Below are positions 3,274-37,263 of a stretch of DNA of 37,263 nucleotides, one piece after another. Origin of the DNA: a virus. Taxonomy: Duplodnaviria > Heunggongvirae > Uroviricota > Caudoviricetes. The position numbers and the translations under genes were made by a program. Where the stretch lies: positions 1 to 37,263 of the IMG/VR virus record IMGVR_UViG_2778261172_000006; one strand, 5' to 3'. The notes under the pieces were generated by a model that was not told the DNA's origin, made no database searches, and saw only the letters and a program-made list of their open reading frames with translations. Positions within the stretch are counted from its first letter, which is position 1. Each line of letters starts with the position of its first letter.

Positions 3274-3359
3274 CAGCGCAAATAAAACCACAGATTAAAT
3301 AAGAAAACGTGAAAACAATCCGCATTCGCGGAGGTATTCGCACATGCCAAGGAGGCGCA

Positions 3360-4101: not shown

Positions 4102-4112
4102 AGGACCGCGAT

Positions 4113-4316
4113 ATGAACAAAAAGACCTGGTTTCGCGCATACATGTGGGCGCTGGTATGCGTCCTCGTTTCTCTCATTCTGTATGCAGGACTACTCCCCC
4201 GAATGATTTCATCAGACAGCTCCTTCCTGGTATTGCTGGGCATTTTCATTGCCATGCTGTACCCGGCAGGCGTTGTTCGCCTTTTCAGTAAGTACATCAA
4301 GGAAATCAAACAATGA
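4113..4316 (+). CDS. small two-TM membrane protein (67 aa)
   Basis: Two hydrophobic helices (YMWALVCVLVSLILYAGLL and FLVLLGIFIAMLYPAGVV); stop overlaps the SPFH gene start (ATGA at 4313). Confidence 0.55.
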   Translation: MNKKTWFRAYMWALVCVLVSLILYAGLLPRMISSDSSFLVLLGIFIAMLYPAGVVRLFSKYIKEIKQ

Positions 4317-9084: not shown

Positions 9085-10044
9085 ATGAAAATTTGTATCG
9101 ACGACGGCTCCACCAACATCAAGCTGGCATGGACTGAGAACGGCGAACGCCGCAACGCCATCAGCCCGAACAGCTTCAAGTCGGAATGGTCTGCGCCGTT
9201 CGGTGGCACGCAGCCCGCGAACTACATGCTTGATGGCGTGCGCTATGGTTTTGATCCGGTCAGCGATCGCTTTGTCCAGACGACCGACACGCAATACCAG
9301 TACAGCGATGTGAATGTCATTGCCATTCATCACGCGCTGGTCAAATCAGGCATCACGCCACAGGAGGTGGATGTGGTTGTCACCCTGCCACTGAGCGAGT
9401 ATTTCGACACAAACGCACAGCCGGACATGGCCAACATCAACCGCAAAAAAGCGAACGTTATGCGCCCGGTGGAGTACCAGAACGGCGAAGCATTCACTAT
9501 CCGTAACGTGCGGGTTATGCCTGAATCCATTCCGGCTGGCTTTAAGGCACTGGCTGACATGAGTCCGTTTGAATCCCTGCTGATTGTGGATTTAGGCGGA
9601 ACCACGCTGGATGTGGCAAAGGTTCAGGGGCAACTGGCAGGTATCAGCCAGGTGTTTTGCGATCCACACGTAGGCGTTTCCCTGATGGTCGATGCCGTGC
9701 TGTCGGTGATGGCCGCTAACGGTATGCGTACCAGTCACCACATCGCCAATACCATTATCGAACATCGCCATGATGAAGCCTGGTTGCGCCAACACATCCA
9801 CAATGACGCGCATTACGCCAGCCTGATGGCGGTTATTCGTGAAAAGGAAGAAACACTGAAACAACGCGTGATCCGCGCGCTGGCGGGTTTTTCGGGTTAC
9901 GGACGGGTGATGGTTGTCGGTGGCGGGGCGGAGATTGTGGCACCCGCTATCCGCGAAGCCTGCGGAGTTAATGCGACTTTCATCGCGGACGGGGTGCCAC
10001 AGTTTGCTCTGGTTAATGGGCTGTACGCAATGGACAAGGAGTAA
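9085..10044 (+). CDS. parM: ParM/StbA-like actin-type segregation ATPase
   Basis: 319 aa; N-terminus MKICIDDGSTNIKLAW, SDVNVIAIHHAL, VMPESIPAG, DLGGTTLD and VVGGGAE match remembered plasmid R1 ParM motifs along the whole length. Confidence 0.85.
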   Translation: MKICIDDGSTNIKLAWTENGERRNAISPNSFKSEWSAPFGGTQPANYMLDGVRYGFDPVSDRFVQTTDTQYQYSDVNVIAIHHALVKSGITPQEVDVVVTLPLSEYFDTNAQPDMANINRKKANVMRPVEYQNGEAFTIRNVRVMPESIPAGFKALADMSPFESLLIVDLGGTTLDVAKVQGQLAGISQVFCDPHVGVSLMVDAVLSVMAANGMRTSHHIANTIIEHRHDEAWLRQHIHNDAHYASLMAVIREKEETLKQRVIRALAGFSGYGRVMVVGGGAEIVAPAIREACGVNATFIADGVPQFALVNGLYAMDKE

Positions 10045-17297: not shown

Positions 17298-18098
17298 ATG
17301 ATTACTCCTGCACAGCAACACTGGCAGAACGTGATGGCACAGCGCGCAGGCCGGGCGAATGAAGGCGTGGACCACGCCGCGCGTACCGCGCATGAAGAGG
17401 TGCTGTATCGTCTGCGTCTGGCACAGGCCCGGCTTAAGGGCGTACAGGCCAGAAGCGCGAAAGCCGCCATCAAAAAAGAGTTATTGCCGGACTTTTCCGG
17501 CTGGATTGAGGGAACGCTGGAGGCTGACGGCGGGCAGCAGGATGAAGTGATTGCCACGCTGATGGTGTGGGCGATTGACTGCGGCGATCTTCCGCTGGCG
17601 CTGCGTATTGGTGCGTATGTGGTCCGTCATAACCTCATTATGCCGGATAACTTTGGCCGTACTGCTGCCACGGTACTGACCGAAGAAATCTGCAACCCGG
17701 TACTGACGCAGGCCGGGACGGATGCCGACGCGGATTTATCCGCCTTTATCGAACCACTGGATACCCTCCGGGAGATTGTCACCGACCAGGACATGCCGGA
17801 CGAAGTGCGCGCCAAATTATGCAAGGCGTGTGCCTTTGCCCGTCGTGGCCTGACCGATGCAGACAGCATGGCCTCATCACTGAAGCTGCTGCGCGAAGCG
17901 ATGCACCTGAACCCGAACGCAGGTGTGAAACGCGAGATTGCAACCCTTTCCCGCGCCCTGAAAAAAGCCGATTCCGCAGCCGCACCAGAAGACGCCAGCA
18001 CACAGCAGACGCAGGACGAAAGCAGCAAAAGTAAAAAGACAACGCGGAAGCCTGCAACACGAAAAACCACCGCGACGCAGAAAGCGAAGCGCGGTTAA
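17298..18098 (+). CDS. M: terminase small (endonuclease) subunit (P2 gpM family)
   Basis: 266 aa; DMPDEVRAKL and AGVKREI motifs as in P2 M; basic C-terminal tail. Confidence 0.85.
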   Translation: MITPAQQHWQNVMAQRAGRANEGVDHAARTAHEEVLYRLRLAQARLKGVQARSAKAAIKKELLPDFSGWIEGTLEADGGQQDEVIATLMVWAIDCGDLPLALRIGAYVVRHNLIMPDNFGRTAATVLTEEICNPVLTQAGTDADADLSAFIEPLDTLREIVTDQDMPDEVRAKLCKACAFARRGLTDADSMASSLKLLREAMHLNPNAGVKREIATLSRALKKADSAAAPEDASTQQTQDESSKSKKTTRKPATRKTTATQKAKRG

Positions 18099-18200
18099 CG
18101 ACTGACCCCGTCAGCGGGCGGCGTGCGCGGTGTTCCGGTTTGACTCCGTGACCGTTTACACCGCGTACCCACCGCCCGATTTTTTTCAGGAGTGAACCCC

Positions 18201-18695
18201 ATGAGTATGGTTGCCAGAACCACCCCCGGACCCGCAGAGGACGACATCACCGATACCGATGATGGTGATACCCGTATTTCAGCGGGTGCATTCTGGCCGG
18301 ATATTGTGCTGCGCGAGCTGCGTCTGGCGATACGACTGCCGGGCCGTGTGACCACCTCCCGCCTGCTGCATACCGCCACCGGGGCCGTGGCACACGTTAC
18401 CCGCGAGCTGGAAGCATGGCAGCAGGAACAGCAGGCGGCTGGCCATCAGACGCTGGCCGATGTTCCGGCACCCGTAATTAACGGAGAAAGCGTCAATCTC
18501 TGGCACTGGCGCAATGCTGTTTATACCGCCACACGCGCCCTGATTCTGGAGCGTTATCGTGATGCAGACACAACGGACAAGGGCGACCGCCGGGCGGACG
18601 CTCTGGATATACAGACATCGGATTTGTGGCGTGATGTGAGCTGGGCCATCTCTGACATTCTGTGCCGCCCGCGAATCTTTGCGGAGTTGTGCTGA
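18201..18695 (+). CDS. L: capsid completion protein (P2 gpL family)
   Basis: ATG at 18201, 10 nt after AGGAG (track start 18192 is GTG); stop overlaps X start. Confidence 0.8.
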   Translation: MSMVARTTPGPAEDDITDTDDGDTRISAGAFWPDIVLRELRLAIRLPGRVTTSRLLHTATGAVAHVTRELEAWQQEQQAAGHQTLADVPAPVINGESVNLWHWRNAVYTATRALILERYRDADTTDKGDRRADALDIQTSDLWRDVSWAISDILCRPRIFAELC

Positions 18696-18895
18696 TGAAA
18701 GTGAAGGCACTGGAAGGCGACACCGTGGATTCGCTCTGTTTCCGGTACTACAGCACGACGCAGGGTGTCACCGAAAAGGTGCTGGATGCCAACCCCGGAC
18801 TCTGTCAGCAGGTATTTCTGGACGCCGGGCAGGAAGTGGAGATGCCGGAGCCGGAGAAGAAGAAACGAGAAATGATTCAGTTGTGGGGGGAGTAG
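18695..18895 (+). CDS. X: tail protein X (P2 gpX family)
   Basis: 66 aa starting MKVKALEGDTVDSLCFRYY, parallel to P2 X; ATGA overlap with L. Confidence 0.75.
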   Translation: MKVKALEGDTVDSLCFRYYSTTQGVTEKVLDANPGLCQQVFLDAGQEVEMPEPEKKKREMIQLWGE

Positions 18896-18897
18896 TA

Positions 18898-19221
18898 GTG
18901 AGCACCATTCAAACAGGGATCACAGAGCAGGTTATTGCGTGGCTCTTTGACCACCTGCCAACGGTGTATGCAGCAGGCGCGGCGGTCAGCATTTCCGCGC
19001 TGATGAGTCTTTATGACGGACGAACGCTGGTTCAAACCGTAACGGGATCGCTGGCGTGCGGCGTTCTTGCCATGGCCGTGGCCGGGTCGTTGCGCTTCTT
19101 CGGAGTTCCTGAAGATGCCGTGACGTTTTTCGGCGCATCTATCGGTTTTATGGGCGCAGAAAAAGCACGCGACAAGATCATTGCCGCCTTTAACCGCATA
19201 ACCCAAAAGGGAGATGAATAA
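18898..19221 (+). CDS. putative holin
   Basis: GTG start after GGGGGAG; 107 aa with two or three hydrophobic helices and a charged C-terminus; directly upstream of endolysin. Confidence 0.55.
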   Translation: MSTIQTGITEQVIAWLFDHLPTVYAAGAAVSISALMSLYDGRTLVQTVTGSLACGVLAMAVAGSLRFFGVPEDAVTFFGASIGFMGAEKARDKIIAAFNRITQKGDE

Positions 19222-23808: not shown

Positions 23809-25911
23809 ATGAGTACCACAACACGAAAATTTAAAACCGTTATCACCGATACGGGCGCAAAAAAATTAGCTCAGGCAGCCGCGCCAGATGGTAAGCCTGT
23901 CCGCCTGACTCATATGGCCGTGGGCGACGGTGGCGGCACGTTGCCCACACCAGACAGTAAGCAGACCCGTCTGGTGCATGAGGTGTGGCGACACACTGTT
24001 AATCGCGTCATCCTGGACGCAACACATCAGAACCGCATTATTGCGGAGCTGGTTATTCCTCCTGAAACGGGCGGATTCTGGATCCGGGAAATTGGTGTAT
24101 TTGATGAGCACGGCGATTTAATCGCGGTGGGCAATACTGCCGAAAGTTACAAACCAACCGTTGCCGAAGGGTCCGGACGTGCACAAACATTTCGCACCAT
24201 TCTGACCGTATCCAGCACTGCCACCGTGGCGCTTACCGTGGATAACACCATGGTGATGGCCACAGTGGATTACGTGGATGACAAACTGAAAGAGCATGAA
24301 CAGTCACGACGTCACCCGGACGCCTCGCTGACCGCAAAAGGCTTTGTTCAACTCAGTAGCGCCACTAACAGCGATTCTGAAACGCTGGCTGCAACGCCGA
24401 AAGCGGTTAAGGCCGCGTATGACCTGGCTAACGGAAAATATACCGCTCAGGACGCCACGACGGCACGAAAAGGGATAGTCCAGCTCAGCAGTGCAACCAA
24501 CAGCACGTCTGAAACGCTGGCAGCGACACCAAAAGCGGTTAAGGCGGTAATGGATGAAACGAACAAGAAAGCCCCATTAAACAGCCCGGCACTGACCGGA
24601 ACGCCAACAACACCAACTGCACGACAGGGAACGAATAATACCCAAATCGCAAGCACGGCTTTCGTTATGGCCGCGATTGCCGCACTTGTAGATTCGTCAC
24701 CTGACGCACTGAACACGCTGAACGAGCTGGCGGCGGCGCTGGGCAACGACCCGAATTTTGCGACCACCATGACTAACGCGCTTGCGGGTAAGCAACCGAA
24801 AGATGCCACCCTGACGGCGCTGGCCGGGCTTGCTACTGCGGCAGACAGGTTTCCGTATTTTACGGGGAATGATGTCGCCAGCCTGGCAACCCTGACAAAA
24901 GTCGGGCGGGATATTCTTGCGAAATCGACCGTTGCTGCCGTTATCGAATACCTCGGTTTACAGGAAACGGTAAATCAGGCTTCTGGCGCATTACAGAAAA
25001 ACCAGAACGGCGCAGATATTCCGGGAAAAGATACCTTCACCAAAAATATTGGGGCCTGCCGCGCATATAGCGCATGGCTGAATATTGGTGGCGATAGTCA
25101 GGTCTGGACAACCGCGCAATTTATTTCGTGGCTGGAGAGTCAGGGAGCATTTAACCATCCTTACTGGATGTGCAAAGGCTCATGGGCTTATGCAAATAAT
25201 AAGGTCATTACAGATACAGGTTGCGGAAATATTTGTCTTGCAGGTGCTGTGGTGGAAGTTATTGGTACTCGCGGCGCAATGACCATACGCGTTACTACGC
25301 CGAGCACGTCCAGCGGTGGCGGAATTACTAACGCTCAATTCACTTATATTAATCATGGTGATGCTTATGCTCCTGGCTGGCGACGAGACTACAACACGAA
25401 AAATCAACAACCTGCATTTGCTTTAGGGCAAACAGGAAGCACTGTCGGAAATGATAAAGCTGTTGGCTGGAACTGGAATAGCGGGGTCTATAACGCAAAC
25501 ATTGGTGGCGCATCGACATTAATCCTCCACTTCAATATGAATACGGGGAGCTGCCCTGCTGTACAGTTCCGCGTGAATTACAGGAACGGCGGTATTTTTT
25601 ATCGTTCAGCGCGTGATGGTTATGGATTTGAGGCTGACTGGTCAGAGTTTTACACCACGACCCGCAAACCCTCTGCGGGAGATGTTGGTGCATACACGCA
25701 GGCAGAATGTAACTCAAGGTTTATTACAGGTATTCGCCTTGGCGGTCTGTCATCTGTTCAGACATGGAATGGCCCCGGCTGGTCTGACAGGTCAGGTTAT
25801 GTCGTTACGGGTTCAGTTAACGGAAACCGTGATGAATTAATTGATACAACACAGGCAAGGCCAATTCAGTATTGCATTAATGGAACGTGGTATAACGCGG
25901 GGAGTATTTAA
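23809..25911 (+). CDS. H: tail fibre protein (P2 gpH family); C-terminal part encoded inside the invertible segment
   Basis: 700 aa; internal SSATNS-ETLAATPKAVKA repeats; C-terminus CINGTWYNAGSI; constant part ends at the left crossover site. Confidence 0.9.
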   Translation: MSTTTRKFKTVITDTGAKKLAQAAAPDGKPVRLTHMAVGDGGGTLPTPDSKQTRLVHEVWRHTVNRVILDATHQNRIIAELVIPPETGGFWIREIGVFDEHGDLIAVGNTAESYKPTVAEGSGRAQTFRTILTVSSTATVALTVDNTMVMATVDYVDDKLKEHEQSRRHPDASLTAKGFVQLSSATNSDSETLAATPKAVKAAYDLANGKYTAQDATTARKGIVQLSSATNSTSETLAATPKAVKAVMDETNKKAPLNSPALTGTPTTPTARQGTNNTQIASTAFVMAAIAALVDSSPDALNTLNELAAALGNDPNFATTMTNALAGKQPKDATLTALAGLATAADRFPYFTGNDVASLATLTKVGRDILAKSTVAAVIEYLGLQETVNQASGALQKNQNGADIPGKDTFTKNIGACRAYSAWLNIGGDSQVWTTAQFISWLESQGAFNHPYWMCKGSWAYANNKVITDTGCGNICLAGAVVEVIGTRGAMTIRVTTPSTSSGGGITNAQFTYINHGDAYAPGWRRDYNTKNQQPAFALGQTGSTVGNDKAVGWNWNSGVYNANIGGASTLILHFNMNTGSCPAVQFRVNYRNGGIFYRSARDGYGFEADWSEFYTTTRKPSAGDVGAYTQAECNSRFITGIRLGGLSSVQTWNGPGWSDRSGYVVTGSVNGNRDELIDTTQARPIQYCINGTWYNAGSI
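24340..24558 (+). repeat. tandem repeat of about 132 bp inside H, encoding GxVQLSSATNSxSETLAATPKAVKA twice
   Basis: Two 44-aa units visible in the H translation. Confidence 0.75.
24941..24974 (+). repeat. left crossover (gix-like) site
   Basis: TTATCGAATACCTCGGTTTACAGGAAACGGTAAA, inverted copy of 28002-28035 (31 of 34 identical); contains the TTCCTGTAAACCGAGGTTT core I recall for Mu gix. Confidence 0.85.
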
Positions 25912-25913
25912 TT

Positions 25914-26447
25914 ATGATGCACTTAAAAAATATTACAGCTGGCAACCCTAAAACAAAAGAGCAATACCAGCTAACGAAACAATTTAACATCAAATGGCTT
26001 TATACAGAGGATGGGAAAAACTGGTATGAGGAACAAAAGAACTTTCAGCCTGATACGTTGAAAATGGTCTATGACCACAACGACGTTATTATTTGTATTG
26101 AAAAGGATGTTTCAGCAATTAATCCAGAAGGCGCAAGCGTCGTTGAGGTTCCTGATATTACAGCAAATCGCCGGGCTGATATTTCGGGTAAATGGATGTT
26201 CAAAGATGGCGTAGTGATAAAGCGAACTTATACCGAGGAGGAACAGAGGCAGCAGGCAGAGAATGAAAAGCAAAGCCTGTTGCAACTTGTCAGGGATAAA
26301 ACCCAGCTATGGGACTCACAGCTACGGCTGGGCATCATTTCCGACGAGAATAAACAAAAATTAACCGAGTGGATGCTCTATGCGCAGAAGGTCGAATCCA
26401 CAGACACCTCCAGCCTGCCAGTAACGTTTCCCGAACAACCTGAATGA
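25914..26447 (+). CDS. G: tail fibre assembly chaperone (P2 gpG / Tfa family)
   Basis: 177 aa starting MMHLKNITAGNPKT; directly follows H. Confidence 0.85.
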   Translation: MMHLKNITAGNPKTKEQYQLTKQFNIKWLYTEDGKNWYEEQKNFQPDTLKMVYDHNDVIICIEKDVSAINPEGASVVEVPDITANRRADISGKWMFKDGVVIKRTYTEEEQRQQAENEKQSLLQLVRDKTQLWDSQLRLGIISDENKQKLTEWMLYAQKVESTDTSSLPVTFPEQPE

Positions 26448-26450
26448 GAC

Positions 26451-26480
26451 AAGGCCCGCTATCGGGCCTTAATTTTTATT
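26451..26480. terminator. bidirectional terminator between the convergent tfa genes
   Basis: AAGGCCCG-CTAT-CGGGCCTT hairpin followed by AATTTTTATT. Confidence 0.65.
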
Positions 26481-27003
26481 CAGGCTTTTGTGGCCATTCA
26501 GGATTTGCCGTATCCACACGGCTGACCAGAACACTGTAGCGTTCCCATGACTCCAGTCGTGCGCGCTCCTCATCCGTCGCCATATTCAGCCTGACAGCGC
26601 GTTCCAGTGGCTGAATAACGCTTTCTGCTTCGGAAAGTAACGCAGCCTTTTGTGATTCGGCCTGTTGTTGCTGTTCATCAGCCGTATAAATCCGTTTAAC
26701 CACAGCTCCGTCCTTAAACATCCACTTTCCTGAATCATCAGCGCGGCGGTTGGCTGTAATATCGGGAACCTCAACGACGCTAAAGCCTTCAGGGTTAAGC
26801 GTAGAGGCATCCTTGGTGATAGCGACAATAATATTATTTTCATCGTAAACAATCTTTATTGTGTCTGGCTGAAAGTTTTTCACTTCCTCATACCAGTTTT
26901 TTCCGTCTTCGGACCACAACCAGATAACGTCAAAATTCTTTGTTAATTCGTACTGCTCCAGTGTTTTAGCATTACCCGTTTTTATATTCTTTAAGTGCAT
27001 CAT
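26476..27003 (-). CDS. alternative tail fibre assembly chaperone (Tfa', inverse orientation)
   Basis: 175 aa, N-terminus [14 protein letters not shown] paralogous to G; minus strand inside the invertible segment. Confidence 0.85.
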
Positions 27004-27004
27004 A

Positions 27005-27985
27005 CTAAACGCTCGCTACATTATACCAGGTGCCATTTATATACTTTTGAACGGGTCTGTAATAAACGCCCGCTATATTATCGGCAGAGTTGGACCCTGT
27101 ATCCTGAACATTAATACCAGACAATACATGACCTGACGGGCACTGGAAATTCCATGTTTGCCAGTTGTTCACTCCATAATATTGCTGTGAACCAAGTCGA
27201 ACATCTTTCACATATCTGGAATCAAAATTGCCATAGTTGCCGGGAATAACTTGCGAGCCGCAAAGCCAGTTCCCGTTATTATCCATGTACGCCTGACCAT
27301 CGGTACCATTGGCTGTCCTTGAGTTATTAATCATGTAGATGCCAAATTGCTTATTCCCCAATCCACCTATCATGAACTTGCGGTCGGCGTGATTCTGGCG
27401 AAGCAACGCCTGAGCGCTATCAGTGTTAACTATATTTTTCCCAAAGATAGCGTTGTTATCGCGCATCTGAATCCACATACCATTACTGCTGTTAATAGCA
27501 AAACGGTCTGAAAGTGTCTCCCCTGAAACATTAAGACCACGCCCCATCGAAACAGCGCCAGTAGCGTTATTAATCCATAATGGCCTTAATCCGTTATAAG
27601 TCCCCATGTTGTCACCGGAGTTTGTCAACATGAAGTATGTATTTGAACCATCATTACGAATAAAGAATCCGTAATTACCATAAGCAATACGTAGGCCGTT
27701 TGCTGATTTTGATATGACTTCGCCATTTACAATGGCATTGACAAGAACATACAAAGCATCCCATTTAAGATTCATCAGGTCTTTTGTTGTGGTGCTTTGT
27801 TTGCTTCTCCATTTGAAATATTCATTGCCGTTGTCGCCTGTTTCAAACCACATGAATGAATCAGTATCGCTGTCGGCATCATTTTTAAAACCAATCTTCG
27901 CCCAGTCGGTATTTCGAATCCATGCAAGAATTGAGTCGTTTTCAAAAGTAAGTCCACCGGACAAGATATCGCCTGTCTTTTGCAC
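27005..27985 (-). CDS. alternative tail-fibre C-terminal cassette (no start of its own; reading frame stays open through the right crossover site to 28027)
   Basis: Frame upstream of the track start reads [15 protein letters not shown], matching EYLGLQETVN at the H crossover; C-terminus [11 protein letters not shown] paralogous to the H C-terminus. Confidence 0.8.
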
Positions 27986-28001
27986 GGCGTTACCAGCCTT
28001 G

Positions 28002-28035
28002 TTTACCGTTTCCTGTAAACCGAGGTTTTAGATAA
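28002..28035 (-). repeat. right crossover (gix-like) site
   Basis: TTTACCGTTTCCTGTAAACCGAGGTTTTAGATAA. Confidence 0.85.
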
Positions 28036-28089
28036 TGGCCGTTTCCGGCCTGCATGGCATGATTTGCGCTTTTGGACGGGAGATTCAGC

Positions 28090-28677
28090 GTGCTGATTGG
28101 CTATGTAAGGGTATCAACAAATGACCAGAATACAGACCTGCAACGAAACGCTCTTGTTTGTGCAGGATGTGAACAAATATTTGAAGATAAATTAAGCGGG
28201 ACAAAGACAGACCGACCGGGATTAAAACGCGCTTTAAAGCGCCTTCAAAAAGGTGACACGCTGGTTGTCTGGAAACTGGATCGCCTCGGGCGAAGCATGA
28301 AACATCTGATTTCTCTCGTCGGGGAACTACGGGAGCGAGGAATTAATTTTCGCAGTCTGACCGACAGCATAGATACATCTTCTCCAATGGGGCGTTTTTT
28401 CTTCCACGTGATGGGTGCCCTGGCTGAAATGGAACGTGAATTAATTGTTGAACGTACACTGGCCGGACTGGCGGCAGCACGCGCACGGGGGCGCACAGGC
28501 GGACGTCGACCGAAGCTGACAAAAGAACAGCATGAGCAAATAGCAAGGCTAATCAAAAACGGGCACGACAGAAAACAACTGGCAATAATTTACGGCATTG
28601 GTATATCGACGATTTATCGTTACCACCCCGCAGGAGAATCAAGGGGAACAATTGAGAAGAGTCAGGAAACAAAATAA
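28090..28677 (+). CDS. serine DNA invertase (Gin/Pin/Cin/Hin family)
   Basis: GTG start after GGGAG; VLIGYVRVSTNDQNTDLQRNALVCAGCEQIFEDKLSGT... is near-identical to the remembered Mu Gin sequence, including the catalytic Ser region and C-terminal HTH. Confidence 0.95.
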   Translation: MLIGYVRVSTNDQNTDLQRNALVCAGCEQIFEDKLSGTKTDRPGLKRALKRLQKGDTLVVWKLDRLGRSMKHLISLVGELRERGINFRSLTDSIDTSSPMGRFFFHVMGALAEMERELIVERTLAGLAAARARGRTGGRRPKLTKEQHEQIARLIKNGHDRKQLAIIYGIGISTIYRYHPAGESRGTIEKSQETK

Positions 28678-28705
28678 CCGCTAATCTGACCATTAGCGGT
28701 TTTTG
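28678..28705. terminator. terminator between invertase and U (bidirectional candidate)
   Basis: CCGCTAAT-CTGACC-ATTAGCGG hairpin followed by TTTTT. Confidence 0.6.
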
Positions 28706-28712
28706 TGTTAAA

Positions 28713-29207
28713 TCAGAACAGCCCTTTAACTGAACTGGCCGCGCTGTTAAGAGATGATGTCACCTTATCTTTGAAGCCGGACAGCATATCGCTGAATGAT
28801 GAGGATTGCAGGCGCTCCCGCAAATCCTCATCACAGCGTTCAAGGGTCAGTGAAAATTCTATCTTTTTCGCCTTACCGTAGCGATCAAACTCGGAACGGG
28901 TCGTATTCGTTTCAGTCAGCACATACATGCCGTAAATCTGCCCGACACCATCAATCAGAGGCCAGGGGCGTCCTGTATATGCCTGCGTGGTCAGCAACGA
29001 AAGCGACACTTCGCCACCTGTAATTTCAGGATAAAGCACGCCGGAAAGCACAATGCGATCATCACCTGCACCTATATACTGCCAGCTTGCTGAACGGTTA
29101 ACGCGTTCATTTTTCACATGCCGCCAGCTTTTGTTTTGCTGTAACTGCTGATGCGGCAGTGTGCGCAGCTCAAAAACAAACATGCCGTAGATCATCATCA
29201 TGACCAT
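28713..29207 (-). CDS. U: tail protein (P2 gpU family)
   Basis: 164 aa starting MVMMMIYGMFVFEL, like P2 U; start among several adjacent Met codons. Confidence 0.8.
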   Translation of the reverse strand: MVMMMIYGMFVFELRTLPHQQLQQNKSWRHVKNERVNRSASWQYIGAGDDRIVLSGVLYPEITGGEVSLSLLTTQAYTGRPWPLIDGVGQIYGMYVLTETNTTRSEFDRYGKAKKIEFSLTLERCDEDLRERLQSSSFSDMLSGFKDKVTSSLNSAASSVKGLF

Positions 29208-29213
29208 GACTCC

Positions 29214-32030
29214 TCAATCTTTATCGTAAAAACTGCCACGTCCGGCACGGGCGCGCCGTTCCATCTCTGCCCTGACCATTTCACCGACCAGTTTCGCCAG
29301 TTCGCGGGGATTCTGCGTAACAACGTTATGCAGATGAACATGAATTTCACCGCCAAATCCGGAGACAACAGGCTCCCGGTTACGGGAAGTTGCAGGAATT
29401 GATGCCACTGGCGATCGTATGGCCTCCGCCACCGGACGGGAGCTGGCCGCAACAACAGGGACCAGCGCCGGAGGCAGAGGAGCCGGGACTACGGGTGTGA
29501 TGTTGATTGCGGAAGCAGACTTACTGGCCTGCGCAATCTTCCGCTCCTGCCACTCCCCACGAACAGCAAGTGCGCGGGGCAGGTTCTTAAAGACAATATC
29601 GCCGGGGCCAATGCGTTTTTTCGTCTCATCAACCAGCTTACCTGTGTTATCAGCAATTTTGCTGAGTCTGCGTAGCGTACCGGTATTGCTGTCTGTGAGC
29701 GGTTTATTGTCTTTGGGTTTATCACCTCCGGTGCCATTGCCATTTTCCGCAGGCTTCGGCGGATTGATTTTCGCAAGGTCCCCCTGAAGCAAGGCAACCT
29801 TGTCCTGAAGAATGGCCGCACGCTGTGCGTCTTCGATTTTCTTGCGCGCCCTTTCCGCTTCATCCGGAAGGACGCCAAGTTTTTCAAGTATCCACGCCAG
29901 CGTATCCAGTAGCATTTTTGCAGGTGTCAGAACAAGCTGTAACGCACCGCCAAGAACGTTACCGAATATCTCGCCAGCACTGGTACATTTATCCAGCGTT
30001 TCCTTGCTGGACTCCATCGGTGATAGCAGCGATTTAAACCAGTTAAAGACCTGAATAATCCCATCACGCACGACATCAAAAACAGGACCGAACCGTTCAA
30101 AGGTTTCGCGCAACGGAGCCAGCCGTTCCATAATCCCACTGAACACCCCGGCATAAAACGCCTTGATGGGTTCCCAGTATTTCCAGATGAGAACCGCCGC
30201 AGCCACAAACGCAGCAACAATCAATCCAACCGGACTGAGCAGCGCCCCGATAGCGCCACCCAGCAACGAGATGGAACCTGTTACCATTCCCCATAGTGCT
30301 GGCAGCACCCTGACGACATTCATTGATCCTGTCAGGAGAGAAAAACCGAGACGTAACGTAGCCAGCTTCCCGTGAAGCACCCCAATAACCAGAGACAACG
30401 AACCAACCGTTGCTGTTGTCGCCAGCAGTGCACCTCCCGCTATCAGTAGCTGGCGCGTCAGTGCCGGATGGGCCTGCGCCAGCGCCGTCACCCTTGATAC
30501 CACCCGCGTGAGCCACTGCGTGACAGAACGCAGCGGACCGTCAATCAGATCTGCAATGCGGATGCGCAACCCTTCCCATGCACTGCCGAGTGATTTCAGA
30601 TCGCCGTCAAGGTTGTTGGCCATAACCTTTGCCGTGCGTTCAGCCTCACCGCGCGCGCCTTCAAGTTCTTTTCTCAGTTTGGGTAAGGAGCCGTCACCTG
30701 CCGCATCAACGAGGGCCATAAATGATGTGAAAGCCTCTTCTCCGGCAATGTCCTTAAAGAACGATACCCGGTCAACTTCCCCGTATTTGCGGGTGGCTTT
30801 ATAAAGGTCAGCCAGCACATCCTCCATCGGGCGCATTTTGCCCCCGGCATCCGAGACAGACACGCCAAGCTCTTTCAGCGCCTCTGCTGCCGCCTTTGGC
30901 GGTGATGCCAGACGAGCCAGGCTGGCACGCATTGCCGTCCCGGCATCACTCCCTCTGATACCCATATTCGCCAGCACGCCCGCCATCGCTGCGGCCTGCT
31001 CCAGCGATATTCCCAGCTTACCCGCCACCGGACCTGCATATTTCATGGTTTCGCCCAGCGCGCGAAGGTCAGTGTTAGTACGGGTAAACGCTGCTGTAAG
31101 CGTGTCACCGACCCGGTCCATCTGGTCAGCGGAGAGGCCGAACTGCGTCAGGATATTTGAGCCAATATCTGCCGTCTCGCCGAGATCCATACCGCCAGCC
31201 GTTGCCATGCTCAGCACGCCGGGAAGCGCAGCCTGAATGGCCTGCGGAGTGAAGCCAGCCATTGCAAGAAATGCCTGCCCACTGGCGGCATCGCCTGCGG
31301 TGAACTGCGTTTCAGAGCCAAGTTTTAACGCCTGCTCACGCAGCGCCTTAAACTGCGGGCTGTTCTGGTCGATTCGCGTCAGTGCCTGAACGCGGGACAT
31401 CTCTTTCCCGAACCCGATCGCAGGCTGCAAAAAACGCCCGGCAGCATAGCCGCCCGCCGCTGCCGCACCAATTGCCAGTGCACCACCTGTTTTCAGTTTT
31501 CCCGCTGTTTCCTGCGCGCGCGAATACCGCTCACGCGCCCGCGTTACACGCGCAAGCGCCTGCCGTTCGCGTTCAAGCTGGTTGTTATACTGTTCGGTGC
31601 GTCTGATGGCCTGCTGGATGGTGTTATCGCTGCCTGTCAGGGAAATGCCGTGGCGTTTCAGCTCTCCGCCAAGCTCCCGCATTTTCTGAATTTCCCGTGT
31701 GCGCGATTCATTCAGGCGTTCAAGCCGGGTGCTTAACTGCTGCATCAGCTTTTGTTGTTTTTCGCTGAGCACTGTACCCGTGCGTTGTAACTGATTAAGG
31801 GCGTTAAGCTGGCGTCGTGCTTTCACGATACCCGCATCCGCTTTACTGACAGCGTCGCGGGCGCGCTCAAATGAACGCGCCTGACGCTCGAGATTTTTGA
31901 TCGCCCCCTGCGTTCGCTGGATGGAGTCACCAAACTGCCCCATCAGGCGGCGTGCGTTTTCGGCAGGTCGGGTCAGCCTGTCAACGGCGCTGAAAGCGAC
32001 CCGGATATCAAGAGTCTTCATTGTCTGCAT
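29214..32030 (-). CDS. T: tail tape measure protein (P2 gpT family)
   Basis: About 940 aa, Ala/Gly-rich with coiled-coil N-terminal half; start ambiguous between 32021, 32030 and 32057. Confidence 0.88.
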   Translation of the reverse strand: MQTMKTLDIRVAFSAVDRLTRPAENARRLMGQFGDSIQRTQGAIKNLERQARSFERARDAVSKADAGIVKARRQLNALNQLQRTGTVLSEKQQKLMQQLSTRLERLNESRTREIQKMRELGGELKRHGISLTGSDNTIQQAIRRTEQYNNQLERERQALARVTRARERYSRAQETAGKLKTGGALAIGAAAAGGYAAGRFLQPAIGFGKEMSRVQALTRIDQNSPQFKALREQALKLGSETQFTAGDAASGQAFLAMAGFTPQAIQAALPGVLSMATAGGMDLGETADIGSNILTQFGLSADQMDRVGDTLTAAFTRTNTDLRALGETMKYAGPVAGKLGISLEQAAAMAGVLANMGIRGSDAGTAMRASLARLASPPKAAAEALKELGVSVSDAGGKMRPMEDVLADLYKATRKYGEVDRVSFFKDIAGEEAFTSFMALVDAAGDGSLPKLRKELEGARGEAERTAKVMANNLDGDLKSLGSAWEGLRIRIADLIDGPLRSVTQWLTRVVSRVTALAQAHPALTRQLLIAGGALLATTATVGSLSLVIGVLHGKLATLRLGFSLLTGSMNVVRVLPALWGMVTGSISLLGGAIGALLSPVGLIVAAFVAAAVLIWKYWEPIKAFYAGVFSGIMERLAPLRETFERFGPVFDVVRDGIIQVFNWFKSLLSPMESSKETLDKCTSAGEIFGNVLGGALQLVLTPAKMLLDTLAWILEKLGVLPDEAERARKKIEDAQRAAILQDKVALLQGDLAKINPPKPAENGNGTGGDKPKDNKPLTDSNTGTLRRLSKIADNTGKLVDETKKRIGPGDIVFKNLPRALAVRGEWQERKIAQASKSASAINITPVVPAPLPPALVPVVAASSRPVAEAIRSPVASIPATSRNREPVVSGFGGEIHVHLHNVVTQNPRELAKLVGEMVRAEMERRARAGRGSFYDKD

Positions 32031-32537
32031 TCCCGCTGCGAAGTGCCGCCCGCTCACGCCAGCTAACCACTTCGCCGGGCGTCATCATGAAGATTTCGGC
32101 GGGCGACCAGTTAAAAATGGCGGCAATATCCGCCACAAAGTCTTCTATGTGCTCAAAGCACACAACCGTGATCAGGCTTCCGTCGCCTGTTCGTTCTTCC
32201 CGCCAGAGTCCGCACCGCTCAAAAAATTTACGGCAACCACACATAACTGAATAAAGTCACGGGATGCCATTTTTTTGATCGTCACTTCATCCAGTCGCGG
32301 TGATGTCACGCGTGACAGCAGCGTAAACATGGATTCCGCTTTCAGACTCAGCACATCAGACAGCGACAAATCTCGCAGAGATCCAGCCTGCTCAATAGCC
32401 CCGGTGATCTCCACATACGTGATTTTTTCGCCGCCTCGCTCAATGGGTTGGGTAAGTTTTACGCCACGCTCACTGGTTTCTTTCACAGTGTCAGCAACTA
32501 CCGTATTTTCGGTATCGATGTTTTTCGTCTCTTTCAT
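32008..32537 (-). CDS. E+E' product of programmed -1 frameshift
   Basis: TTTTTTG heptamer (minus strand, 32220-32226) in the E frame; -1 frame stays open to 32008 and overlaps the T start, as in P2 E/E'. Confidence 0.7.
32172..32537 (-). CDS. E: tail assembly chaperone E (P2 gpE family)
   Basis: ATG at 32537 with AAGGAG RBS; 121 aa; contains slippery heptamer near the 3' end. Confidence 0.8.
   Translation of the reverse strand: MKETKNIDTENTVVADTVKETSERGVKLTQPIERGGEKITYVEITGAIEQAGSLRDLSLSDVLSLKAESMFTLLSRVTSPRLDEVTIKKMASRDFIQLCVVAVNFLSGADSGGKNEQATEA
32220..32226 (-). other. -1 ribosomal frameshift slippery site TTTTTTG
   Basis: Read directly; E frame AAT TTT TTG, shifted frame AAA TTT TTT GAG. 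Confidence 0.7.
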
Positions 32538-32591
32538 CAGGAAACTCCTTTCAGTCAGAGGCGACGCACTGCGCCGCCTGCATATTACTTA

Positions 32592-33104
32592 TCAGCCAAG
32601 CCCGAGCGCGGAACGGATGCGATCGGGCACAATGTCCTTGCCGTCCTTCCGGTAAATGAAGTTCAGCAGGTCAATCTCCCACAACGGGCGATCGTTAACA
32701 CTCAGCTTGTAGTAGGTGTTTTTAATGGCGTAAGTGTGTGATGTGGCTTCGCCCTGTTTGGCTTCCCCCATATCAATTTCCGTCACACGTCCGCGCATTT
32801 CGACTTCATACAGGTCGCTTTCTGCATCGGTGTAGTATTCACCCGCAAAACGCAGCAGCGTGCCGTCAATCGTGCCGCCATACTTAAGGAACAGCTCACG
32901 AACTGCGCCCCCCATGACAAAGCTCGCATCAAGCGCGGAGTCGTCCAGGCCGAGATCAATACTTACCGCCCCCATCATGCCACCACCCCGGTAGCTGTCG
33001 GTTTTGCGCGTCAGCTTAGGCAAAGTGACGGACGTCACCTTACCCACTTCGTTTTCACCATCCACAAACAGCGTAAAAAAGCGAAGATGTTTTGGCACAG
33101 CCAT
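32592..33104 (-). CDS. FII: tail tube protein (P2 gpFII family)
   Basis: 170 aa; GGGAGG RBS; start overlaps FI stop. Confidence 0.88.
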   Translation of the reverse strand: MAVPKHLRFFTLFVDGENEVGKVTSVTLPKLTRKTDSYRGGGMMGAVSIDLGLDDSALDASFVMGGAVRELFLKYGGTIDGTLLRFAGEYYTDAESDLYEVEMRGRVTEIDMGEAKQGEATSHTYAIKNTYYKLSVNDRPLWEIDLLNFIYRKDGKDIVPDRIRSALGLG

Positions 33105-34288
33105 CAGGCACCTCCCAGCACCGCAAATGCGGGTTCAAAGTATTCATCAGTAAACGTCTGGTAAAGCTCCATGTCTTCCAGTGGCGGAACGGGCGTATAT
33201 TTGTAGCGAATACGCACACGCCCCTGACGTAAATCCGTGGTGCTGTTATCCACCACGTCATACCAGCACTCCGCGCCAATCAGTTTCCCGGCAGTCACCA
33301 GTGAATCCAGTTTTGCCCTGATGGCACTGATAACATCCTTCACGTTCGCAGGCGTCAGTGGACTGTCGATGGTTTCAAACTGCGCTTCCGCAATTGAATC
33401 AGCCAGCACCTGTGCGGTTCGGGTATACACCTCAAAAATGTAGGCGTTCGTTTCCGGTGTGCGGTTGCCCCAGAAGCGGAACCCGTTGCGACGAATAATG
33501 GTCGTGATTTCTTTGTTGTTGAGGCTGTTGGCATCGCTGTCTTCGGCCTGCAACGACCAGAACACATGCCTCGACATCCCCAGCACATTTTTAACCGGAA
33601 CGTTGGACAGCGATTTGTGCCAGCCCTGCTCATGGTCAATGTACGCACGAAGGCCGCACGCATAAGCAGGCGCGGGGAACGTTTCGTTTTCGCCACTTTT
33701 CGGGTTGTAGGCGATGAAGTCCGGCCATAAGAGCATCACTTCACGTTCGTTGAATTTCTGGCGGTAGGTAATCGCTTCAGCCATCGTGTTACAGCCGTGA
33801 CATGAGGCATACACAAATGCGCGCAGTTTACCCGCAATCACGCACAGGGATTTTGTCACCGCCTCCGTGTCCAGCTCCGGCGCGGCCAGAATACGCGGAC
33901 GGTATCCGATGCTTTCATCCTGCTCTGCAACAAGCAGCGCATACATCCCCGTATAGCTGCCGTCATCCTCAGAACCACCGATAACCAGTTGATCCTGCGT
34001 CTTTTCGTCTTCTTCTTTGTGTTCAGCCACGCGAACGACGATCACCTTTGTGCTCACCTGGTCTGCGATGGCCTTAAGCGCACGATAAAGCGTCCCCGTT
34101 GTTCCGCATTTTCCCAGCACGTCATTGACGCGGGTCAGCAGTGTGGGCTTGTTCAGCGGGAACAACTTCGCGTCCGCATCATCCGCCGTTGCCACGATAC
34201 CGATAACGCTGGAATCAACATCGTTAATCGCTGTTACCAGGTCGGTATTTTCCGTAACACGGGCACCATGAAAACGAGTTTCACTCAT
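33104..34288 (-). CDS. FI: tail sheath protein (P2 gpFI family)
   Basis: 394 aa; IRRNGFRFWGNRT and YKYTPVPPLE motifs as in P2 FI; AAGGGG RBS. Confidence 0.9.
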   Translation of the reverse strand: MSETRFHGARVTENTDLVTAINDVDSSVIGIVATADDADAKLFPLNKPTLLTRVNDVLGKCGTTGTLYRALKAIADQVSTKVIVVRVAEHKEEDEKTQDQLVIGGSEDDGSYTGMYALLVAEQDESIGYRPRILAAPELDTEAVTKSLCVIAGKLRAFVYASCHGCNTMAEAITYRQKFNEREVMLLWPDFIAYNPKSGENETFPAPAYACGLRAYIDHEQGWHKSLSNVPVKNVLGMSRHVFWSLQAEDSDANSLNNKEITTIIRRNGFRFWGNRTPETNAYIFEVYTRTAQVLADSIAEAQFETIDSPLTPANVKDVISAIRAKLDSLVTAGKLIGAECWYDVVDNSTTDLRQGRVRIRYKYTPVPPLEDMELYQTFTDEYFEPAFAVLGGA

Positions 34289-34445
34289 AGCTTCAGCCCC
34301 TTGTATCCGTTAAATGATTCGGCAACAATCATCACCCACCACGCGCGTAATCTCACCCCTGCGCCGTTCTCCCGCCACGGCGACAACAAAAAGCAGTAAC
34401 CCCCTCCGCACGCACATGCGACCATGCCACACAGGGAGGGAGCAG

Positions 34446-35555
34446 ATGACCGACACCACCATGCAATTGCTCAGTCAGGGCACAGACCCCGTGAAAATGC
34501 CGGATTTTGATATTCTCGCCGAGGGTAAAACGCTGTCCGGCGTGGCAGAACGCCTGATGAGCCTGTCACTGACCGACAACCGGGGATTTGAGGCGGACCA
34601 GCTCACCATCACGCTGGATGATGCTGATGGTCAGTTGCAGTTGCCGCCACGGGGCGCTCGCCTGACGGTTCTCATTGGCTGGAAAGGCGAACCGCTGACA
34701 GAAAAAGGCACTTACATTGTTGATGAAATTGCTCATGAAGGACCGCCCGACAGACTGACCATTTCAGCCAGAAGCGCAGATTTTCGGGATGAATTTAACG
34801 TCAAGCGCGAAGTGTCCTGGCATGATGTGACCGTTGAGCGAGTGGTATCCGCCATCGCTCATCGGTACGGTCTGAAACCGCAAATCAGCGAAATGCTGAT
34901 GGATATCGAAATCGACCACGCCGACCAGACCGAAGAAAGTGACATGTCCTTCCTTACGCGCATGGCGGAAATGCTGGGCGCAATCACCACGGTAAAAAGC
35001 GGCAATCTGTTATTCATCATGCCCGGTGGTGGCGTGAACGCACAGGGCCAGCCGTTGCCCTCGTTCGCCATTACACGCAGCAGCGGCGATCGCCATCAGT
35101 TCCGTATTGCTGACCGCGAGGCGTATACGGGGGTACGCGCCTACTGGCTTGATCTTAATTACGGGAAAAAGAAAAAGGTCAGCGTAAAACGCCGTAAACC
35201 GCCAAAACCCAAAAAGGAGAAAAGCAGCAGCCGTGAAGGTGATTATATGGAAGGTGCGGAAGGCAATGTGTTTGTGTTACGCAAGACTTATCAGAACGAG
35301 CAGGCAGCAAGACGCGCAGCGGCGGCAAAGTGGCAGCAGCTACAACGCGGAGCCGCATCATTTTCCATCACGCTGGCACGTGGACGTGCAGAACTCTACC
35401 CCGAAATGCATGGCACGGTAACAGGATTTAAAAGCGAGATTGATAATCAGGACTGGATTATTGCAAAAGCCGAGCACACCATTGATAACAGCGGCTTTAC
35501 CACGCAGCTTGAGCTTGAGGCAAAAATCCCGGAATGGATAGCGGAAACAGAGTGA
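34446..35555 (+). CDS. D: late tail protein D (P2 gpD family)
   Basis: ATG at 34446 after GGGAGGGAG; 369 aa; position immediately before ogr. Confidence 0.88.
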   Translation: MTDTTMQLLSQGTDPVKMPDFDILAEGKTLSGVAERLMSLSLTDNRGFEADQLTITLDDADGQLQLPPRGARLTVLIGWKGEPLTEKGTYIVDEIAHEGPPDRLTISARSADFRDEFNVKREVSWHDVTVERVVSAIAHRYGLKPQISEMLMDIEIDHADQTEESDMSFLTRMAEMLGAITTVKSGNLLFIMPGGGVNAQGQPLPSFAITRSSGDRHQFRIADREAYTGVRAYWLDLNYGKKKKVSVKRRKPPKPKKEKSSSREGDYMEGAEGNVFVLRKTYQNEQAARRAAAAKWQQLQRGAASFSITLARGRAELYPEMHGTVTGFKSEIDNQDWIIAKAEHTIDNSGFTTQLELEAKIPEWIAETE

Positions 35556-36256: not shown

Positions 36257-36883
36257 ATGAAACAAAAATCAAAGTCTGCTGCCATTGCTGCTATTGCTAC
36301 AGCTCTGACAGCATCACTGGCTCCGGTGCCAGCTAAAAGCACGATACTACCAACAACAGTTATTGAATCCGTGACACACGCCAGAGTGGTTTCAATGCTT
36401 ACATTTGAGCATCATGATGGTCAGGTGTTTCTGCCTCTTGAAGAAGCTATTGAATATATCAACGGGCTGAATGACAACATGCGTGCCGCGCTCAATGCAG
36501 TCATTGAAGAACGACAGAACAGAGGCAAGGGAGCTCTGTTTGCTGACAAAACCGCAAAAATCATAAAAATATGCGAAGAGTCACTTAAGCAGCACAGCCG
36601 TGTTAAAGAGGCTGTCAAAATTGTAATGGATCCGGATAACCTGGCAAAAATGTATCCGGATAGCATGGAGCAAAGAATCGCCTATCGCAATAAACTGGTT
36701 CGTTTTGGTCGGGCAATTGCGCAGGGAGAGTTTATCGCTCGTGATGCCATCAACGCCATCAAACGAAGCACCGCACCAGACAAAACGACCAGCCTGGGCA
36801 ATACGCTGTCTGACGGAAATGTGAAAGCAATGATTATTGCCGAGCATAAAAACATGGGACTCCCGGCACCGGAGTTTTCCTGA
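36257..36883 (+). CDS. hypothetical protein (208 aa), upstream partner of YafO-like gene
   Basis: ATG at 36257 with GGAG RBS; Ala-rich hydrophobic N-terminal segment AAIAAIATALTASLAPVPA; stop overlaps downstream start (ATGA). Confidence 0.55.
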   Translation: MKQKSKSAAIAAIATALTASLAPVPAKSTILPTTVIESVTHARVVSMLTFEHHDGQVFLPLEEAIEYINGLNDNMRAALNAVIEERQNRGKGALFADKTAKIIKICEESLKQHSRVKEAVKIVMDPDNLAKMYPDSMEQRIAYRNKLVRFGRAIAQGEFIARDAINAIKRSTAPDKTTSLGNTLSDGNVKAMIIAEHKNMGLPAPEFS

Positions 36884-37263
36884 TGGCAAGCAAAGTAAGC
36901 ATTCATAAAGATGTTGAATACCAGGACATTGCAAAAGTTTACGGAAAGGCTCTGGAAAACTGGTTAAATACCGGTGTTCTCCCTGACAGATTCGGCAATG
37001 AAGGGCAGTGGGAAGATAACGCAAGATTATGTGGTTCGTTTGTATATAAATTACACATAAGACTACCGTCAGAACCACCATGGAAGAAAAGCAAAGCCCA
37101 AATAGACAGAACTTCAAATATCTATCTGGTTTATACAAGGCACTGGATGGATTATGACAATATACAAATCATCAGCATCATGGCCCCAGATGCTCACGAA
37201 AAAGCCAAAACTTCTTTCATGGCTGAGCTGGAAAGACGGGCAGAAGAATTCCAGAACTCATAA
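36883..37263 (+). CDS. YafO-like toxin (type II TA ribosome-dependent mRNA interferase family)
   Basis: 126 aa; GVLPDRFG, HIRLP, SNIYLVYTRH and IISIMAPDAHEKA parallel remembered E. coli YafO motifs (GVLPDIFG, HIHL, EAHLVYCQG, LIAILKPEPHKLA). Confidence 0.65.
   Translation: MASKVSIHKDVEYQDIAKVYGKALENWLNTGVLPDRFGNEGQWEDNARLCGSFVYKLHIRLPSEPPWKKSKAQIDRTSNIYLVYTRHWMDYDNIQIISIMAPDAHEKAKTSFMAELERRAEEFQNS

Follow-up and report, generated by a model that had tools for sequence, protein, structure and literature searches.

The window (the whole 37,263-nt stretch that was analyzed) contains a tail fiber gene, H, whose 3′ part lies within a segment bounded by two inverted sites (Table 1). The 3,069 bp between the sites encode two fiber C-termini and two chaperones in opposite orientations, and a serine DNA invertase gene lies just beyond the right site. 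The constant part of H has 97 to 99% nucleotide identity to Xuanwuvirus-type prophages.

Table 1. Features of the tail fiber cassette and adjoining invertase gene (window positions)
Feature	Position	Strand	Remarks
Tail fiber gene H	23809-25911	+	ORF, 700 aa
H constant N-terminal part, P2 H type	23809-24952	+	Tail-collar N-terminal domain and two Phage_fiber_2 repeats; Pfam PF12571, PF03406
Left crossover site, gixL-like	24941-24974	+	26-bp site, 24941-24966, TTATCGAATACC-TC-GGTTTACAGGAA; central TC, 24953-24954
Expressed variable H C-terminus (Sv), Mu S′ [G(-)] type	24955-25911	+	316/318 aa identical to Mu S′ C-terminus (99%)
Assembly chaperone of expressed tip, Mu U′ type, 177 aa	25914-26447	+	Pfam Caudo_TAP; 175/177 aa identical to Mu U′ (99%)
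Terminator-like GC hairpin with T-run between the convergent chaperone genes	26451-26470	+	Consensus match only
Silent alternative chaperone, Mu U type, 175 aa	26476-27003	-	Pfam Caudo_TAP; 167/175 aa identical to Mu U (95%)
Silent alternative H C-terminus (Sv′)	27005-28021	-	Mu S [G(+)]-like, SfMu-type receptor tip; PF21446
Right crossover site, gixR-like	28002-28035	-	26-bp site, 28010-28035, minus strand TTATCTAAAACC-TC-GGTTTACAGGAA; TC, 28023-22
Serine DNA invertase, 195 aa	28090-28677	+	GTG start as in Mu gin; 55 nt beyond right site
5′ part of invertase gene	28090-28330	+	97-100% nucleotide identity to Mu gin in 60-nt bins, first ~240 nt
Bidirectional terminator-like hairpin between invertase gene (+) and gpU (-)	28676-28701	.	

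The left site (TTATCGAATACCTCGGTTTACAGGAAACGGTAAA) and the reverse complement of the right site (TTATCTAAAACCTCGGTTTACAGGAAACGGTAAA) are identical at 32 of 34 positions. The initial annotation had placed both sites correctly, but its count of 31 identities did not survive alignment. A repeat finder extended the inverted repeat to 62 nt at 79% identity (24937-24998 and 27978-28039). Both mismatches fall in the outer half-sites, and the inner halves and the central TC are the same on the left and right. Compared with gix of Mu (TTATCCAAAACC-TC-GGTTTACAGGAA), the outer half-site differs at two positions on the left and at one on the right. The two inverted 26-bp sites fit the gix consensus and share their central dinucleotide, as is characteristic of the Din family. 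A third crossover site, allowing shufflon-like multi-inversion as in one EPEC P2 prophage, was rejected, since the 20-nt core occurs at just these two sites in the window with up to three mismatches allowed (0 of 100 shuffles); with a looser core, the matches at 25710 and 28223 are no better than expected by chance.

The left site falls within the reading frame of H (VIEYLGLQETVN), and each orientation would therefore make an in-frame fusion to one tip. The silent fiber end has no start of its own and reads ...AII(stop)NLGLQETVNKAGN..., with its TAA stop directly outside the crossover. The ORFs agree with the earlier description of about 3.1 kb that holds the H C-terminus and its chaperone on one strand and promoterless alternatives on the other. 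As had also been proposed, both crossover sites encode LGLQETVN and the tip swap stays in frame: flipping the segment in silico yields a 720-aa H. Each alternative 3′ end, together with its own chaperone, can thus be fused in frame to the constant 5′ part, which is another characteristic of the Din family. Sv′ is 87% identical to Mu S and diverges from it over the final ~70 aa; the tip is 97.8% identical to that of SfMu. The predicted flipped H is identical at 710 of 720 aa (98.6%) to a real gene in an E. coli genome that encodes the identical invertase (L015). The exact 720-aa protein is absent from a collection of 15 billion proteins, but this look-up is uninformative, because the window's own 700-aa H is known there from only two contigs.

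The invertase has Pfam Resolvase (1.3e-50) and HTH_7 (1.6e-13) domains, and its structural matches include PDB entries 4m6f and 3uj3 (E of about 1e-101). Alignment to Gin shows that Ser9 and the wild-type Met114, the roles of which have been described (PMC3575834), are kept; a catalytic domain with Ser9 and a C-terminal HTH are the features of a small serine recombinase. Overall, 155 of 181 aa (86%) are identical to Gin, with ~98% identity over residues 1 to 120. By hand count on alignments, the DNA-binding domain shares only ~51 to 56% identity with its Gin and Hin counterparts (Hin, ~56%), and its recognition-helix region is Hin-like (IGISTIYRY versus IGVSTLYRY in Hin). At the DNA level the gene is a mosaic with a breakpoint near 28450, beyond which identity to Mu falls to ~50 to 58%. 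The initial annotation was therefore right about the position of the gene, whereas its "near-Gin-identical" holds for the catalytic two-thirds and not for the diverged DNA-binding domain. Because both that domain and the outer half-sites have diverged, the affinity of the invertase for these sites is deduced from relatives. The exact protein is present on 89 contigs.

In 1985, Kahmann et al. reportedly located a Fis-dependent recombinational enhancer (sis) in the 5′ part of Mu gin. Since the invertase gene is nearly unchanged from Mu over its first ~240 nt (Table 1), the Mu enhancer should be present within this part of the gene, judging from sequence. A scan with a loose, degenerate Fis motif was not decisive in placing the enhancer, none is annotated in the GenBank record of Mu, and a simple sigma-70 scan gave no convincing invertase promoter.

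The host element is, by its sequence, a Xuanwuvirus (P88-like Peduoviridae) prophage of E. coli. Its gene order is that of P88_4B11 and phage 520873, and its flanks are 95 to 97% identical at the nucleotide level to members of the genus. As in other Xuanwuvirus genomes, the FI-FII-E-T-U block is inverted relative to V-W-J-I-H, with the invertase cassette between them. By these same data, the earlier label of a P2-like prophage stands as to P2 relatedness but is more exactly P88-like rather than P2 proper. The prophage looks complete, with integrase, replication, head, lysis, baseplate, and tail genes, and H is part of the late structural operon. The hallmarks of a Mu genome (the S constant part, a transposase, and mom downstream of gin) were not found; the surroundings are P2-type (GPA replication protein, P2 gpU, FI/FII, gpD, and the H N-terminus), and homology to Mu is confined to 24938-28478. 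We also considered the tail block (gpU-T-E-FII-FI on the minus strand and D on the plus strand) as a second, larger inversion and rejected it, since this layout is fixed in Xuanwuvirus genomes; no inverted repeat was found flanking the gpU-T-E-FII-FI block. Scanning the window for a tRNA that could mark an attachment site returned nothing.

The window sequence holds one orientation, and relatives were compared for the other. In the near-clonal O145 isolates RM8988-C1 and RM8995-C1 (loci L007 and L008), the flanks have no mismatches and a 3,087-bp segment is inverted exactly; at both crossover sites, the window and these two loci have the same spanning 30-mers. Ten loci encoding exactly the window's invertase protein were sampled, with orientation called from chaperone order: six have the orientation of the window and four the opposite one, and one near-identical pair among the ten differs by nothing but the flip. 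Among such loci, L009 has flanks 99.97 to 99.99% identical to those of L011 and L013, with the segment inverted. The inner half-sites of these loci are not identical, and they trade sides between L009 and the other two, which places the crossover within the common 11-bp core CCTCGGTTTAC. Across complete E. coli genomes, the observed junction occurs in 126 and the flipped junction in 356. At the level of sequence comparison, this argues strongly for real inversion.

Two further pairs were set aside. L006 and L007 are not a clonal pair, with only 91.8% identity in the right flank and different loci, and proved to be two different sister prophages. L004 and L005, from two O111:H11 strains, have opposite orientations but are not clone-level evidence, because the prophages are only about 97% identical. 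Decayed cassettes also occur among the relatives: L006 has frameshifts in the invertase, the chaperone, and the silent fiber C-terminus, and L014 carries an IS insertion.

We consider it very probable that the locus is a Gin/Din-family site-specific inversion switch, a cassette of the Mu G segment type carried by a P88-like, P2-related E. coli prophage. In such a switch, invertase dimers would bind the two inverted 26-bp gix-like sites, and assembly of a synaptic tetramer would be aided by host Fis on an enhancer in the 5′ part of the invertase gene. The tetramer would cut both sites at the central TC, rotate, and religate, thereby flipping the 3,069 bp. Each orientation would join the constant 381-residue N-terminus in frame to one receptor-binding C-terminus or the other, with the chaperone gene of that tip immediately downstream. 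The captured state would correspond to G(-) of Mu, with the Mu S′ tip and the U′ chaperone, and the flipped state would combine the 720-aa H, bearing a Mu-S/SfMu-type tip, with the U-type chaperone. The sequence data suggest that the switch is most likely functional and, by inference, that the source strain has inversion activity; dependence on Fis and the enhancer would follow by analogy, as would, from Mu, a change of host range upon flipping.

A frozen state, in which a cassette from an invertible ancestor no longer flips and supplies a single fiber type as a result of poor invertase expression or poorly bound outer half-sites, seems improbable to us. It would accommodate the single orientation in the window, the outer half-sites that differ from Mu gix, the lack of a clear invertase promoter, and the decay of some relatives' cassettes (the frameshifts in L006 and the IS insertion in L014). 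However, the invertase ORF is unbroken and retains its catalytic residues, and both silent genes are intact ORFs with 87 to 95% identity to their Mu counterparts. The same invertase protein is moreover found with both orientations among near-identical prophages, as are, in other relatives, the same site-spanning 30-mers. It is hardly credible that the orientation differences arose from RecA-dependent homologous recombination or assembly choices rather than from the invertase. The segment does contain a longer inverted homology, between its two chaperone genes (71% over 353 nt), but the breakpoints in L007/L008 and L009/L011 are at the gix sites and not in the chaperone repeat, and in L009/L011 they are in the 11-bp core; the gix repeat itself (~34 nt, or 79% identity over 62 nt) is short for RecA to recombine efficiently. 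Assemblers do choose one orientation for a mixed population, yet a mixed population that forces this choice would itself imply active inversion.

The switch might also serve mainly the lysogen, through an invertase acting in trans or through adsorption-blocking fusions, with phage host-range diversification being secondary. When PinQ inverts the e14 P segment, a protein that blocks adsorption is produced, and such blocking has been reported for PinQ and e14 StfE2 (PMC12529663). E. coli genomes matching the H-through-invertase region have a median of two and up to 12 matching places, so trans targets exist. Against this, the prophage looks complete with H in the late structural operon, and both tips and chaperones are full phage-type modules, 87 to 99% identical to those of Mu; we give a mainly lysogen-serving role scant probability. 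It is likewise very unlikely that the cassette does more than switch host range, with the invertase, through its Gin catalytic domain and partly Hin-like DNA-binding domain, flipping in trans the other Din-type segments present in many E. coli genomes, or with an H fusion expressed by the lysogen blocking competing phages.

An inversion switch of the phage's own fiber, which we prefer, is real but already known: the cassette is the textbook one of Mu, and inversion in P2-like E. coli prophages has been shown experimentally (PMC4272514). Its importance beyond correct annotation is small. The locus is properly annotated as a single phase-variable fiber gene whose C-terminus has two alternatives, rather than as a "hypothetical protein" next to a partial "phage tail protein," and assemblies of such strains show an arbitrary orientation. 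Phage induced from a lysogen culture should be a mix of two adsorption specificities (Mu G(-)-like and Mu-S/SfMu-like), which bears on host-range assays and prophage typing. A block of ~3.5 kb that starts at gixL, spans the segment and gixR, and reaches into the 5′ part of gin is nearly unchanged between Mu-like and P2-like phages and is another case of modular tail fiber cassette exchange.

Among known systems, the window cassette is the same as the G segment/Gin system of Mu (found also in D108). The segment is 94% identical to Mu at the nucleotide level, and identity of ~94 to 95% starts at gixL and continues ~360 nt into the invertase gene. The gene order (Sv, U, U′, Sv′, and gin outside the right site), the 34-bp repeat with its central TC, and the GTG start are shared. 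Unlike in Mu, the constant part is a P2-type H N-terminus and not Mu S, the Mu homology beginning at gixL, and the C-terminal DNA-binding domain of the invertase has been replaced. In addition, the silent tip ends in the SfMu type rather than the Mu S type, and the captured state is G(-), whereas the Mu reference record is G(+).

The Xuanwuvirus phages (P88, P88_4B11, Escherichia phages 520873 and 503458, and Citrobacter phiSM) have the same genome layout as the window: V-W-J-I-H, two chaperones, a silent fiber end, and the invertase, then gpU-T-E-FII-FI on the opposite strand, and D. Their RefSeq records annotate the cassette as tail fiber, tail fiber assembly, and DNA invertase. They differ from the window in carrying partly other variable modules, and some of the records were captured in the opposite orientation; in P88_4B11 the inner half-site differs and the silent copy is truncated.

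Ongoing inversion has been reported for Mu and two P2-like prophages of EPEC E2348/69 (Goldberg et al. 2014, PMC4272514). In the EPEC prophages, sequencing found the orientations coexisting in clonal cultures, and all four variants of a three-repeat locus were confirmed by PCR as well (PMC4272514). As in the window, a serine invertase adjoins convergent fiber-assembly genes and alternative fiber ends in a P2-type tail region. The EPEC loci differ in having Pin/e14-type sites (AAACCTTGGTTTGGGAGAAG), segments of ~1.9 to 2.0 kb, other fiber modules, and tail genes in the canonical P2 orientation, and one of them has three repeats that give the four variants. The P1/P7 C segment (Cin), the e14 P segment (Pin), Salmonella Hin, and Fels-2 Fin share the DNA-invertase family and its logic. 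The C segments of P1 and P7 are 91 to 94% identical at the nucleotide level to most of the window segment, and in P1 the invertase gene presumably lies on the other side of the C segment. In the Hin system, it is a promoter that is flipped, not a coding end.

The initial annotation had read an invertible tail-fibre segment in this prophage; the observation is confirmed, and the reading is supported both by the anatomy of the cassette and by inversion in relatives. Two sites, in-frame alternative fusions, paired chaperones, and an intact serine invertase are present (see table), and site-limited, precise inversion is found in sister elements. With flipping read from those relatives and host range from phage Mu, the cassette is very probably a working Gin-type host-range switch.

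Features of the inversion cassette and the surrounding prophage
Feature	Position	Strand	Description
Integrase	left edge of window		
H (tail fibre)	23809-25911		700 aa; P2-type tail-collar N-terminal domain and two fibre repeats
Left 26-bp site			TTATCGAATACC TC GGTTTACAGGAA
Chaperone, expressed side	25914-26447	+	177 aa, Caudo_TAP
Chaperone, silent side	26476-27003	-	175 aa
Silent fibre C-terminus	27005-28021	-	
Right 26-bp site		-	TTATCTAAAACC TC GGTTTACAGGAA
Mu gix (for comparison)			TTATCCAAAACC TC GGTTTACAGGAA
Invertase gene	28090-28677		GTG start, as in Mu gin
gpU, tape measure, tube (FII), sheath (FI)	within 28713-35555, after invertase	-	
D (gpD)	within 28713-35555	+	

The pair of inverted 34-bp sites is indeed present, although the identity between them is 32 of 34 positions (24941-24974 against the reverse complement of 28002-28035) rather than the 31 originally counted, and a repeat finder extends the similarity around them to 62 nt at 79%. 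The two sites are the sole matches in the 37-kb window to the 20-nt core AACCTCGGTTTACAGGAAAC with up to 3 mismatches allowed, so that this search found no third crossover site there, and 0 of 100 dinucleotide-preserving shuffles contained a match. The left and right sites differ at two positions, both of them in the outer halves, which remain with the flanks on inversion; the central TC and the inner halves are the same in both, and the centres are 3,069 bp apart.

The left site sits within H, at ...VIEYLGLQETVN..., and the silent fibre copy, read outward on the minus strand, continues as ...AII*NLGLQETVNKAGN... This alternative C-terminus has no start codon of its own and meets a TAA stop directly outside the crossover. 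The proposed in-frame swap of the tip held: when the segment is inverted in silico about the central TC, H remains an unbroken reading frame of 720 aa, and the 175-aa chaperone gene follows 2 nt downstream, matching the layout of the expressed side. The observed H protein is an exact match to the E. coli RefSeq protein WP_089618364.1. Its constant part contains a 96-nt direct repeat (24318-24413 and 24450-24545, 76% identity) that corresponds to the two Phage_fiber_2 repeats.

The description of the invertase as nearly identical to Gin applies to residues 1 to 120, in which there are only two differences, but not to the later helix-turn-helix (HTH) domain; overall, 155 of 181 residues are identical. 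Ser9 and the wild-type Met114, whose roles have been described (PMC3575834), are both retained. The DNA of the gene shares 94-100% identity with gin up to 28449 (60/60, 58/60, 59/60, and 57/60 in the 5' bins) but only ~50-58% thereafter, so that the gene is a mosaic of a Gin catalytic domain and an HTH domain of another type. In its recognition-helix region, the replaced DNA-binding domain is more like Hin (IGISTIYRY). The Gin-like stretch includes the part that holds the Fis-dependent enhancer in Mu; the scans applied located neither a recombinational enhancer nor an invertase promoter. A terminator-like hairpin 3' of the gene is common to the convergent gpU gene.

Both orientations of the segment are found among relatives. 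The observed left junction was covered over at least 80% of a 600-nt query in 126 complete E. coli genomes, and the in-silico flipped junction was covered in 356. The O145 strains RM8988-C1 and RM8995-C1 carry the same prophage, with 0 mismatches across flanks of 6.2 kb and 4.3 kb and a 3,087-bp segment in opposite orientations; the alignments overlap with the flanks by ~42 bp at each end, and the window shares with them the 30-mers across both crossover sites. Among the 10 loci that encode exactly the invertase protein of the window, chaperone order places 6 in the orientation of the window and 4 in the other. The predicted flipped H is identical at 710 of 720 residues to a real 720-aa gene in one locus (L015) that also encodes this invertase. 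Taken together, the relatives amount to strong indirect evidence for flipping of the segment, of which the window captures a single orientation.

Inversion could in principle also arise by homologous recombination at the chaperone repeat (353 nt, 71%). The comparison that bears on this is that of L009 with L011 and L013, three of the loci with the same invertase protein, in which the flanks are 99.97-99.99% identical and a 2,712-bp segment is inverted. These loci carry a variant cassette, whose unlike inner half-sites (GGTTTACGAGAACT versus GGTTTACAGGAAAC, at L009 3241-3270 and 5919-5948) exchange sides, so that the crossover must fall inside the 11-bp core that they have in common, CCTCGGTTTAC, with the central TC in it. 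This is exactly what the staggered cut of a Gin/Hin-type enzyme predicts, and so narrow a core argues against recombination at the chaperone repeat and for site-specific inversion.

Strain RM8843-C1 (O145) apparently holds two sister prophages, L006 (NZ_CP035772.1, ~1.21 Mb) and a locus at ~3.03 Mb, captured with their segments in opposite orientations. L006 is 99.99% identical to the RM8988-C1 prophage in its left half and only ~92% identical in the right flank; the RM8988-C1 prophage matches the ~3.03 Mb locus at 99.8%. The invertase, chaperone, and silent fibre end of L006 are frameshifted. Multiple prophage copies in a genome provide targets in trans for invertases and substrates for recombination leading to chromosomal rearrangement. 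In a relative with a decayed cassette (L014), an insertion sequence (IS) element lies within the invertible segment (3173-4386) and splits a chaperone gene.

In Mu, the Fis-dependent enhancer is reported to lie in the 5' part of gin (Kahmann et al. 1985). By analogy with Gin and Hin (PMC3575834, PMC3798978), invertase dimers on both sites and Fis at the corresponding enhancer of the invertase gene would assemble an invertasome on supercoiled DNA, Ser9 would cut at the central dinucleotide, and a 180-degree subunit rotation would leave the segment inverted. If, as the biology of Mu suggests, the two fibres recognise different lipopolysaccharide cores or hosts, induced lysates would be expected to contain two adsorption types.

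The cassette is close kin to that of Mu, with 91-95% DNA identity to the G segment and the start of gin from 24938 to ~28478; most of the C segments of P1 and P7 are ~91-94% identical to the same block. The expressed tip and its chaperone match Mu S' (the G(-) fibre end; 316/318 aa) and U' (175/177 aa), so the arrangement captured in the window corresponds to G(-). The silent chaperone is identical to Mu U at 167 of 175 residues. The silent tip shares 87% identity with Mu S, but its final ~70 residues diverge, so that the alternative specificity is probably other than that of Mu G(+). Over its last ~70-90 aa (27005-27275, minus strand), the silent tip has 97.8% identity to Shigella phage SfMu, and the last ~90 aa have 100% identity to a minus-strand copy in a record named "Peduovirus P2" (NC_070904.1). 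The homology to Mu starts cleanly at gixL, the left site.

The window is a single prophage with an HTH repressor-like gene, a GPA-type replication protein, and a capsid/terminase/lysis region; baseplate genes V-W-J-I precede H. Accessory genes (4313-5143, 9085-10044, and, at the right edge, 36883-37263) encode an SPFH/Band-7 protein, a ParM-like actin (StbA_N, ParM_N), and a YafO-type toxin. The FI-to-U block, which directly adjoins the invertase gene, is reversed relative to phage P2. A second inversion was considered for it and rejected, because genomes of the genus Xuanwuvirus (P88-like Peduoviridae) have this arrangement as a fixed feature; a search for an inverted repeat flanking the block found none. 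The Xuanwuvirus phages P88_4B11 and Escherichia phage 520873 have the same gene order, with flanks 95-97% identical. Phage 520873 also carries an IS100 in its sheath gene (17415-19195 of locus L003).

The Mu G, P1 C, and e14 P inversion systems are textbook cases, and the same cassette is already annotated in RefSeq Xuanwuvirus genomes. Goldberg et al. (PMC4272514) found by sequencing, with PCR in addition for one locus, that inversion of Din-type segments is ongoing within clonal cultures, both in Mu and in two P2-like prophages of EPEC E2348/69; unlike the window, the EPEC loci have Pin-type sites and other fibre modules. Systematic surveys also include tail-fibre genes among the targets of programmed inversion (PMC9881135). 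Given these precedents, the finding is correct yet the switch is already known, and only its chimeric invertase, its SfMu-type silent tip, and the clean start of the homology to Mu at gixL are mildly notable beside the known systems.
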